Origin: Escherichia coli
GTDB taxonomy: Bacteria; Pseudomonadota; Gammaproteobacteria; Enterobacterales; Enterobacteriaceae
Reading direction: 5' to 3' (one strand)
Length of the DNA: 64,000 nucleotides
Assembly: GCF_003334315.1 (NCBI RefSeq)
Contig: NZ_QOWR01000020.1
Shown here: positions 55,810-58,709 of the stretch, in pieces
Numbering within the stretch: the first letter of the stretch is position 1
How the letters are laid out: the number at the start of each line of letters is the position of its first letter
The notes under the pieces: generated by a model
Seen by the model: only the letters and a program-made list of their open reading frames with translations
Databases searched by the model: none
Told to the model about the DNA's origin: nothing
Position numbers and translations under genes: made by a program

Positions 55810-55832
55810 GAACATTTATATGTATAAATTTG

Positions 55833-55859
55833 AGCCTGGCTTATCGCCGGGCTTTTTTA
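55833..55859 (+). terminator. Intrinsic terminator downstream of argH
   Basis: AGCCTGGC-TTATC-GCCGGGCT (one G-U wobble) followed by TTTTTT. Confidence 0.55.
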
Positions 55860-55863
55860 TGGC

Positions 55864-55980
55864 AAAAAAAAGCGGATCCTGGAGATCCGCAAAAGTTCAC
55901 GTTGGCTTTAGTTATTCGAGTTGAGAAACTCTCGAAACGGGCAGTGACTTCAAGGGTTAAAAGAGGTGCCGCTCCGTTTC
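55864..55980 (-). ncRNA. oxyS: Oxidative-stress small RNA OxyS (~109 nt)
   Basis: Minus strand reads GAAACGGAGCGGCACCTCTTTTAACCCTTGAAGTCACTGCCCGTTTCGAGAGTTTCTCAACTCGAATAACTAAAGCCAACGTGAACTTTTGCGGATCTCCAGGATCCGCTTTTTTTT, matching OxyS as I recall it, including its terminator hairpin; divergent from oxyR. Confidence 0.88.
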
Positions 55981-56075
55981 TGTGAGCAATTATCAGTCAG
56001 AATGCTTGATAGGGATAATCGTTCATTGCTATTCTACCTATCGCCATGAACTATCGTGGCGATGGAGGATGGATA
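55981..56075. promoter_or_regulatory. oxyS / oxyR divergent promoter region with OxyR binding site
   Basis: 95-bp spacer between the OxyS 5' end and the oxyR ATG; the site is inferred from the known autoregulatory architecture and not delimited. Confidence 0.5.
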
Positions 56076-56993
56076 ATGAATATTCGTGATCTTGAGTACC
56101 TGGTGGCATTGGCTGAACACCGCCATTTTCGGCGTGCGGCAGATTCCTGCCACGTTAGCCAGCCGACGCTTAGCGGGCAAATTCGTAAGCTGGAAGATGA
56201 GCTGGGCGTGATGTTGCTGGAGCGGACCAGCCGTAAAGTGTTGTTCACCCAGGCGGGAATGCTGCTGGTGGATCAGGCGCGTACCGTGCTGCGTGAGGTG
56301 AAAGTCCTTAAAGAGATGGCAAGCCAGCAGGGCGAGACGATGTCCGGACCGCTGCACATTGGTTTGATTCCCACAGTTGGACCGTACCTGCTACCGCATA
56401 TTATCCCTATGCTGCACCAGACCTTTCCAAAGCTGGAAATGTATCTGCATGAAGCACAGACCCACCAGTTACTGGCGCAACTGGACAGCGGCAAACTCGA
56501 TTGCGTGATCCTCGCGCTGGTGAAAGAGAGCGAAGCATTCATTGAAGTGCCGTTGTTTGATGAGCCAATGTTGCTGGCTATCTATGAAGATCACCCGTGG
56601 GCGAACCGCGAATGCGTACCGATGGCCGATCTGGCAGGGGAAAAACTGCTGATGCTGGAAGATGGTCACTGTTTGCGCGATCAGGCAATGGGTTTCTGTT
56701 TTGAAGCCGGGGCGGATGAAGATACACACTTCCGCGCGACCAGCCTGGAAACTCTGCGCAACATGGTGGCGGCAGGTAGCGGGATCACTTTACTGCCAGC
56801 GCTGGCTGTGCCGCCGGAGCGCAAACGCGATGGGGTTGTTTATCTGCCGTGCATTAAGCCGGAACCACGCCGCACTATTGGCCTGGTTTATCGTCCTGGC
56901 TCACCGCTGCGCAGCCGCTATGAGCAGCTGGCAGAGGCCATCCGCGCAAGAATGGATGGCCATTTCGATAAAGTTTTAAAACAGGCGGTTTAA
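56076..56993 (+). CDS. oxyR: LysR-family peroxide-sensing regulator OxyR (305 aa)
   Basis: Start trimmed to [40 protein letters not shown] (LysR HTH); redox Cys in GHCLRD. Confidence 0.96.
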
Positions 56994-58376
56994 ACCGTTT
57001 AACGCAGCTACCCGATAGGCTTCCGCCATCGTCGGGTAGTTAAAGGTGGTGTTGACGAAGTACTCAATAGTGTTGCCGCCACCTTTCTGTTCCATAATCG
57101 CCTGACCGATATGAATAATTTCGGCAGCGCGCTCGCCAAAGCAGTGAATACCCAGAATCTCTTTTGTTTCCCGATGGAACAAAATTTTCAGCGTGCCCAC
57201 GTTCATGCCGACGATTTGTGCGCGTGCCAGATGTTTAAACTGGGCGCGGCCCACTTCATATGGCACTTTCATTGCGGTCAGCTGCTGTTCGGTTTTGCCC
57301 ACAGAGCTGATTTCCGGGATGGTGTAAATACCGGTAGGGATATCTTCAATCAGATGTGCGGTGGCTTCGCCTTTTACCAGCGCCTGCGCGGCAATGCGCC
57401 CCTGGTCATAGGCCGCCGACGCCAGGCTCGGATAACCAATCACGTCGCCCACCGCGTAAACGTGTGGCTGTGCGGTCTGATACATGCTGTTGACCTTCAG
57501 CTGTCCGCGGCTGTCAGTTTCTAGCCCAATGTTCTGTAACGCCAGCGAATCGGTATTACCGGTGCGACCGTTGGCATAGAGCAGGCAGTCAGCTTTCAGT
57601 TTTTTACCCGACTTCAGATGCATGATCACACCATCGTCACAGCCTTCGATCTTCTCGTACTCTTCGTTGTGACGAATCACTACGCCACTGTTCCAGAAGT
57701 GATAGGAGAGAGAATCTGACATCTCTTGATCGAGAAATGCCAGCAGGCGATCGCGGGTGTTGATCAGATCCACTTTTACATCCATACCGCGGAAGATCGA
57801 CGCATATTCACAGCCGATCACTCCAGCACCATAGATAAGTACATGGCGCGGTTCGTGGTGCATGCTGAGAATTGAGTCGCTGTCGTAAATGCGTGGATGG
57901 GTGAAATCAACATCTGTTGGATGATATGGACGAGAGCCGCAGGCAATAACAAATTTTTCAGCGGTTAGTGTTTCAACGCTGCCGTCCGGGCAATCCAGCG
58001 CCAACGTATGCTCGTCAACAAAGCGAGCGTTTCCCTGCAATATTTCACAGTGATTACGTTCGTAAAATCCCTGACGCATGCGCGTTTGTTGATTAATCAC
58101 GTTATCGGCATGGTTAAGGATATCGGCAAAAGAAGAGCGGAGCAGTCGGGAATGGTCGCTGTAAAGTGGGTTTTGATTGAATTCTATAATGCGGCTGACG
58201 GCGTGACGGAGAGCTTTCGACGGGATGGTGCCCCAGTGGGTGCAACCGCCGCCAACATTTTGATAACGCTCGATAACTGCGACGCGCGCACCTTGCTTAA
58301 CCAGGCCCATTGCAGCGCCTTCGCCGCCGGGGCCGGAACCTATTACTATGGCATCGTAATCGTAGGAATGTGGCAT
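56976..58376 (-). CDS. sthA: Soluble pyridine nucleotide transhydrogenase (466 aa)
   Basis: FAD-binding GSGPGG near the N-terminus; disulfide-oxidoreductase fold; 3' end overlaps the oxyR 3' end by 18 bp. Confidence 0.96.
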
Positions 58377-58709
58377 GGTAGGGCTTACCTGTTCTTATAC
58401 ATAAAAGCAACAGAATGGTAACATTTTATCGCGGGTAAGCCAATTGATCCCCGTCATTTATCTGGCTATATCCTGAGCGGCCTTTGCTTTGTCTGTTTCT
58501 TACTTTTGCCCTGACGTTTTATTGGATTTTTATCGACGATACTCTCCGTTTAAGCGGCAGGTTTCCGCTGTACGTAAAAGAACCGGCCAAAGAATTGCAG
58601 TAAATATGTTTTATTGCGTTACCGTTCATTCACAATACTGGAGCAATCCAGTATGTTCATTCTCTGGTATAGTGCCAGCAGTACTTTTGGCAAGGATTCA
58701 GACATCGTG

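Follow-up and report, generated by a model that had tools for sequence, protein, structure and literature searches.

Among the 663 overlapping adjacent gene pairs of Escherichia coli, 75 are convergent (PMC4161906). Convergent pairs account for ∼7% of the well-characterised prokaryotic overlaps, and most of the long ones that are putatively real are conserved in very close species only (PMC2478687). The oxyR-sthA pair falls into this class: two real genes on opposite strands, coding for conserved proteins, share a short 3′ segment through the placement of their stop codons, and the shared nucleotides are conserved in orthologous pairs. It is more widely conserved than most members, in at least four Enterobacterales families, and otherwise differs from them in nothing essential.

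Three classes of transcript-level arrangement are also close. Convergent excludons (PMC12288877) are defined by mutually exclusive expression. As in these, the 3′ transcripts of oxyR and sthA overlap, and dsRNA is formed and processed by RNase III; the pair is named in the catalogue. Unlike in excludons that overlap in their UTRs only, the overlap takes in both coding sequences. Rho-terminated E. coli transcripts, in turn, have precise ends directly behind stable stem-loops, which have no U-tract and shield the RNA from 3′-5′ exonucleases (Dar and Sorek 2018, PMC6061677). The sthA transcript resembles these in its precise end (position 56931) right after a U-tract-less stem-loop, and in read-through sensitive to bicyclomycin (BCM) (scores of 5.8 on the minus and 5.1 on the plus strand, from 800-nt windows). 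It differs from them in that the nearest C-rich stretch does not adjoin the hairpin and begins ∼200 nt further on, and in that the stem-loop sits within the coding sequence of the convergent gene, which places it under constraint at the protein as well as the RNA level.

Ju et al. 2019, using SEnd-seq, reportedly found bidirectional, collision-type terminators between convergent E. coli genes. The locus shares with that class (bioRxiv 10.1101/2022.10.23.513370) the convergent layout, a hairpin that folds on both strands and the lack of a canonical intrinsic terminator; in contrast to the class, which is reported to be Rho-independent and to act at a single shared site, read-through at oxyR/sthA is BCM-sensitive both ways and the two transcript ends are ∼165 nt apart.

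From the comparison developed below, we consider it likely that the locus is an ancient, stably kept tail-to-tail overlap of two real genes with Rho-ended transcripts, and not a special regulatory device. The overlap itself is already annotated, and published genome-wide datasets already cover the overlap of the transcripts, their 3′ ends, their dependence on Rho and the dsRNA.

The coding overlap and its conservation

The window (the whole 64,000-nt stretch of E. coli DNA that was analysed) carries the gene pair as follows; all coordinates are those of the window unless stated otherwise.

56076..56993, plus strand: oxyR coding sequence, 305 amino acids, stop codon TAA at 56991-56993 (ORF listing, NCBIfam NF008361, RefSeq)
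58376-56976, minus strand: sthA coding sequence, 466 amino acids, stop codon TAA as the complement of 56976-56978 (ORF listing, NCBIfam NF003585, RefSeq)
56976..56993, both strands: convergent coding overlap TTAAAACAGGCGGTTTAA, 18 bp, both stop codons included

The original prediction had placed an 18-bp overlap of the last six codons of each gene at 56976-56993. The sequence, the ORFs and RefSeq agree with it exactly, each set of six codons consisting of five sense codons and a stop. It had also held that there is no room for a terminator between the genes. This stands in so far as a terminator between them is impossible with zero intergenic space, and no canonical intrinsic terminator is found at the junction; it does not stand for termination as such, which takes place inside the partner genes. 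The plus strand of the shared segment reads TTA AAA CAG GCG GTT TAA and encodes OxyR L301-V305 (LKQAV) and the stop, and its reverse complement, TTA AAC CGC CTG TTT TAA, encodes SthA L462-F466 (LNRLF) and the stop. The two frames have identical triplet boundaries in the overlap; hence, each stop codon is the complement of a leucine codon of the partner, in both cases the rare codon TTA.

Both products matched curated equivalog models over their full length: OxyR matched NF008361 with 632.9 bits (cut-off 329; residues 1-305 of 305), and SthA matched NF003585, the Si-specific NAD(P)+ transhydrogenase, with 805.7 bits (cut-off 465). A longer oxyR ORF is possible from an ATG at 56046, which would add 10 codons (MNYRGDGGWI; 56046-56075). 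This extension looks like a mechanical artefact, and the annotated ATG at 56076 fits the family model from residue 1 to 305. A perfect 12-bp palindrome, CGGTTTAAACCG, lies across the oxyR stop (56986-56997); it is too short for a stable hairpin and probably just reflects the way in which the antiparallel frames are aligned.

The gene order on the E. coli chromosome is argH-oxyS-oxyR-sthA-fabR. The 601 bp around the junction were found in 5426 of 5426 complete E. coli genomes, and the MG1655 RefSeq record has the identical 18-bp overlap (oxyR 4158490-4159407, sthA 4159390-4160790), as does the annotation of another complete genome. Upstream, the OxyS sRNA maps to 55871-55980 on the minus strand (Rfam, 139.5 bits), and its published 3′ end corresponds to position 55865. 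There, the convergent argH and oxyS have two canonical intrinsic terminators 18 nt apart (plus strand, 55832-55854; minus strand, 55890-55872), which is the textbook layout and is absent from the oxyR/sthA junction.

Conservation was analysed in 80 loci with close OxyR relatives, one genome per species, from Enterobacteriaceae and Pantoea, and both stop codons were located in each. Orthologues of both genes were present in 79 of the 80 loci, all of which have at least 90% OxyR identity, since the contig scan gave only such loci, and the SthA homologues listed were all at least 82% identical. Of these 79 loci, 72 had an overlap of 18 bp, six had one of 27 bp, and in one there was none (0 bp). 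More distant SthA homologues placed on contigs revealed an 18-bp overlap also in Hafnia alvei, Serratia rhizosphaerae and Edwardsiella. The oxyR-sthA overlap is thus not a chance feature, nor a lineage-specific stop loss or error. The 27-bp overlaps occur in Enterobacter soli, Pluralibacter gergoviae and Buttiauxella spp. (loci L029, L030, L074, L076, L077 and L079). The only locus with abutting stops and a 0-bp overlap (GGGTAATTAAAATAA) comes from an uncultured Enterobacteriaceae MAG (L073:3390-3410), whose OxyR was matched over residues 1-302 only.

The stop codons appear in the partner's codon usage. TTA and CTA are the sole leucine codons with a stop as complement, and one of these two encodes SthA Leu462 in 73 of the 79 loci (92%), against a background of 9.4% among sthA leucine codons. 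The 27-bp overlap of six loci arises because Leu462 is there encoded by CTG or TTG, which removes the oxyR stop, so that oxyR reads three more codons to the complement of Leu459. The latter residue is also enriched for TTA or CTA (46 of 79 loci) and, judged from codon usage, looks like a back-up stop for oxyR.

The SthA C-terminus (...ALNGLNRLF) was invariant in 12 homologues from Erwiniaceae, Pectobacteriaceae, Hafniaceae, Yersiniaceae and others. On the other strand, the similarity of OxyR to other solved OxyR structures stops at residues ∼289-297, and the codons immediately 5′ of the overlap are hypervariable, with LKQAV fixed and the synonymous sites of A304 and V305 invariant. With an invariant SthA end, an OxyR tail that lies past the fold and variable codons upstream of it, the OxyR tail seems to be carried along by the end of sthA, which is the constrained partner. 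The overlap would then have originated when an OxyR tail beyond the conserved fold came to read through the complement of the last sthA codons, and oxyR may stop where it does since the TTA codon of SthA Leu462 happens to have TAA as its complement.

In Dickeya dianthicola (L083:3408-3523) there is no overlap, and sthA and oxyR are kept apart by an AT-rich spacer of 116 bp that consists of imperfect tandem repeats (AAATCAATYGTTTT...). The last residues of OxyR are SKQSA there, and a separate, diverged second copy of the 18-bp segment codes for them (13 of 18 positions identical). This suggests that, in Dickeya, an ancestral overlap was resolved by duplication plus insertion. Since this spacer keeps the two genes apart, the overlap is dispensable.

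Transcript ends and the hairpin inside oxyR

As there is no intergenic DNA, the 3′-end signals of each gene sit within the coding sequence of its partner. The features of this region are:

56931..56975, minus strand: sthA 3′ UTR, 45 nt, to the dominant Term-seq end at 56931
56936..56961, minus strand: stem-loop GGCCAUCC-N10-GGAUGGCC in the sthA 3′ UTR, within oxyR codons 287-296 (inverted repeat I3 and fold)
56601..56930, minus strand: sthA read-through zone antisense to oxyR, to the Rho region at 56601; it holds the Conway sthA end at 56724 and is C-rich and G-poor at ∼56626-56726
56994..57103, plus strand: oxyR 3′ untranslated extension, antisense to the last ∼37 sthA codons; fold z = -3.7, ends near the Rho region at 57095 and the end of the Conway overlap at 57103
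57008-57039 and 57042-57086, plus strand: stem-loops in the oxyR 3′ extension (inverted repeats I4 and I5)

The original prediction had proposed 3′-end mapping of both genes as a check, and published maps place each end inside the partner gene: sthA ends at 56931 in oxyR, and the oxyR transcript extends to ∼57095-57103 in sthA. That both transcripts end before reaching the partner gene is in any case impossible, since the coding sequences overlap and any full-length mRNA pair shares at least 18 nt. The dominant Term-seq 3′ end of sthA is at MG1655 position 4159345 on the minus strand (Adams et al. 2021, PMC7815308, Supplementary file 1). It was classed as 'primary' for sthA and 'antisense' for oxyR and is given for two growth conditions, where its read scores of 78,428 and 54,987 are of the order of those of OxyS (PMC7815308). 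The reported 61-mer maps exactly to the window and sets the end at 56931, which is 45 nt past the sthA stop, 63 nt within the oxyR coding sequence and 5 nt after the stem-loop. For oxyR, no dominant 3′ end was called by Term-seq (PMC7815308).

Comparison of cells with and without bicyclomycin revealed Rho regions on both strands (PMC7815308, Supplementary file 2). The one on the plus strand, antisense to sthA, was called at 4159509 (score 5.1, p = 3e-16) and corresponds to position 57095; the one on the minus strand, antisense to oxyR, was called at 4159015 (score 5.8, p = 6e-31) and corresponds to position 56601. The resolution of both positions is low, because the regions were called from 800-nt windows. 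In these published data the BCM-dependent read-through is ∼5-fold on both strands. Past the sthA stop, the C/G ratio is 0.9-1.1 at 50-250 nt and 1.9-2.0 at 250-350 nt. The latter C-rich, G-poor stretch, which is not directly 3′ of the hairpin, could be a rut site by its base composition.

A scan for terminators between 56900 and 57100 gave no canonical intrinsic terminator, the only site being a weak one on the minus strand inside sthA (57140-57120), and a search of Rfam at E ≤ 1 found no RNA family at the junction, only OxyS upstream. We rejected an intrinsic terminator at the junction on the empty scan and on the form of the hairpin, which has the G+C-rich stem-loop of an intrinsic terminator and no immediate U-tract, the stem being followed by UCUGCCAGC (UCUGC).

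The stem of this hairpin (GGCCAUCC/GGAUGGCC) has 8 G+C-rich bp, and the median minimum free energy of the 30-nt segment is -15.1 kcal/mol over the 80 species. The structure was derived from this sequence and its arms also encode conserved OxyR residues; read with this in mind, the stem was paired in 93.8% of cells over the 80 species, against 20-50% when the partner columns were slid. Double-sided changes numbered 8, compared with 1.2 in shuffles, and none of 500 shuffles reached 8. One compensatory example, GGCCGUCC/GGACGGCC, pairs a change of OxyR Ile289 to Val with a synonymous change of Asp294, and GGCCAUUC/GAAUGGCC is a second. The variants comprised 58 distinct loops, as against 12 and 10 distinct arms. 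Two 4-fold-degenerate stem sites rank 7th and 13th in conservation among 126 such sites in oxyR, and those that outrank them are mostly codon-biased CTG leucines or overlap positions. Because the arms are near-palindromic and encode OxyR residues, the covariation does not distinguish which strand is selected. Comparison of G·U wobbles gave 11 cells that pair only on the minus strand and 15 that pair only on the plus strand (93.8% and 94.4% paired, respectively); the wobbles do not separate the strands, and so it is the mapped 3′ end, and that alone, that assigns the hairpin to sthA.

The stem is degraded or lost in Pantoea and Pseudocitrobacter. Another stem-loop, CUCGCGGAU(N)GC(N)UCCGCGAG, was observed ∼45-70 nt past the sthA stop in Hafnia alvei (L084) and Edwardsiella (L086); it is shifted and re-uses the region of the E. 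coli 3′ arm. A stable stem-loop in the sthA 3′ UTR may thus recur without homology. On the plus strand, variation in the stem-loops at 57008-57039 and 57042-57086 is confined to third codon positions, and one stem position changes uncompensated; the region is 93% identical owing to the strong conservation of SthA, and on that account it provides no evidence of covariation for these stem-loops.

Duplex RNA and the weighing of explanations

The oxyR and sthA transcripts overlap and pair in vivo, as seen when published data are mapped to the window:

56697..57041, both strands: dsRNA cluster from RNase III cleavage, captured with p19 (Huang et al. 2020, PMC7373196, Table S1)

This cluster, listed as 'oxyR sthA, 3′, Convergent' at U00096.2 4157134-4157478, was recovered in exponential (cluster 268) and stationary (cluster 345) phase (PMC7373196). 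Two of the 21-22-nt duplexes of Table S3 of that study match the window exactly, at 56698-56720 and 57002-57025, and the by-gene dsRNA amounts to 128-700 RPM, a level reached by only ∼13.5% of genes (PMC7373196). The transcript overlap of Conway et al., 4157161-4157540 with sthA 'T 4157161' (as given in PMC7373196 Table S1), corresponds to 56724-57103. ExcludonFinder lists oxyR-sthA in its Table 1, among 165 convergent transcript overlaps present in at least 50% of 58 MG1655 transcriptomes (PMC12288877). In rnc mutants, proteomics gave changes of 1.17- to 1.37-fold for SthA and 0.67- to 1.26-fold for OxyR, counting the data sheets that contain the respective protein (PMC7373196). A second p19 cluster (58186-58389; PMC7373196) covers the 5′ end of sthA, and an antisense plus-strand TSS at U00096.2 4158793 corresponds to position 58356 (PMC7373196); together they suggest that sthA and a long fabR leader have divergent transcripts that overlap at their 5′ ends.

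The mechanism that we favour can be outlined from these data. Transcription of sthA continues antisense into oxyR, where, as the published BCM data show, Rho stops it a few hundred nt in. The RNA is probably then trimmed back to the stable U-tract-less stem-loop, leaving the sharp end at 56931; the position of this end is mapped, and trimming is how we suppose it to be formed. Transcription of oxyR enters sthA by ∼100 nt and, from the same BCM data, is likewise terminated by Rho. The ∼170-380 nt of complementary RNA form duplexes in vivo that are cut by RNase III, as the published p19 data show. The effect on the expression of either gene is probably small, to judge from the bulk proteomics of rnc mutants and the dispensability of the overlap in Dickeya.

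The original prediction had further proposed that convergent transcription could cause interference or antisense effects between the peroxide regulator and the transhydrogenase. The overlap of the transcripts and the formation of dsRNA bear out its physical premise; as a regulatory effect it is unsupported, the protein changes in rnc mutants being below 1.5-fold. One rival reading is that of a functional excludon, in which the overlap is selected because one gene, when transcribed, reduces the expression of its partner by RNAP collision, RNase III cleavage of duplexes or both, and which would couple the peroxide regulator to NADPH/NADH transhydrogenation. The listing of the pair in the E. coli 'excludome', with overlap in at least half of the 58 transcriptomes (PMC12288877), the p19 cluster in both growth phases with by-gene dsRNA of 128-700 RPM, and the conservation of the overlap over several Enterobacterales families all speak for it. 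We nevertheless regard it as unlikely: anticorrelated expression of oxyR and sthA is unreported in the literature examined, SthA and OxyR shift less than 1.5-fold in rnc mutants, and antisense read-through is limited by Rho both ways. RNAP collisions should be rare, given the low DirectRNA-seq coverage of either strand, at ∼250 reads in 800 nt. The overlap is lost in Dickeya, and locked stop/Leu codons explain its conservation more simply. OxyR, moreover, is regulated mainly through oxidation of the protein, i.e., at the post-translational level, and this also speaks against a functional excludon. That the overlap and the embedded hairpin together form a selected post-transcriptional coupling device seems to us quite unlikely. 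Were it true, a rise in sthA transcription (e.g. upon NADPH excess) would, through antisense RNA and RNase III cleavage or through collisions, lower oxyR mRNA; the set-point of the peroxide response would be tied to the NADPH economy, and OxyR codons 287-296 would be constrained jointly as protein and as sthA 3′-end structure.

Bidirectional termination driven by collision was also considered. Here the hairpin region would pause RNAPs coming from either direction, which collisions, both head-on and with trailing polymerases, would then release. A model of this kind has been proposed for the terminators of convergent E. coli genes (bioRxiv 10.1101/2022.10.23.513370), and the locus has the convergent pair and no intrinsic terminator; its hairpin is near-palindromic, so that either strand can fold, and a sharp 3′ end follows the stem at a distance of 5 nt. 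The class is, however, described as Rho-independent and as using a single shared site, and for these reasons we rate the model low: both strands are BCM-dependent here (∼5-fold), and ∼165 nt separate the end of oxyR (∼57095) from that of sthA (56931), with no single shared element. The model also works best with highly expressed pairs (bioRxiv 10.1101/2022.10.23.513370), whereas oxyR and sthA are weakly expressed; taken together, this makes it very unlikely. Another proposal is that one C-terminus is over-extended in the annotation and that no DNA is really shared. Many long convergent overlaps in databases are indeed 3′-extension errors (PMC2478687), and the OxyR tail does lie past the conserved fold. 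The stops are, however, set by the reading frame, independently of start-codon prediction, and the overlap and both stops are kept in ∼80 species. With both proteins matching curated full-length models, and the solved E. coli OxyR construct (1i69/1i6a, residues 87-305) reaching residue 305, we rejected an annotation artefact, which is extremely improbable.

What the overlap means for E. coli and its relatives

The significance of the locus is small, as E. coli has ∼75 overlaps of convergent coding sequences and 165 of convergent transcripts, among which this is one. There are practical consequences when oxyR or sthA is recoded or deleted: the sthA transcript ends within the final ∼60 nt of oxyR, and the oxyR transcript within the final ∼110 nt of sthA. 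The hairpin illustrates that an mRNA 3′-end stem-loop can be maintained within the coding sequence of another gene, and the locus as a whole is a clean example of a convergent overlap that is kept in place with stop codons that double as rare leucine codons of the partner.
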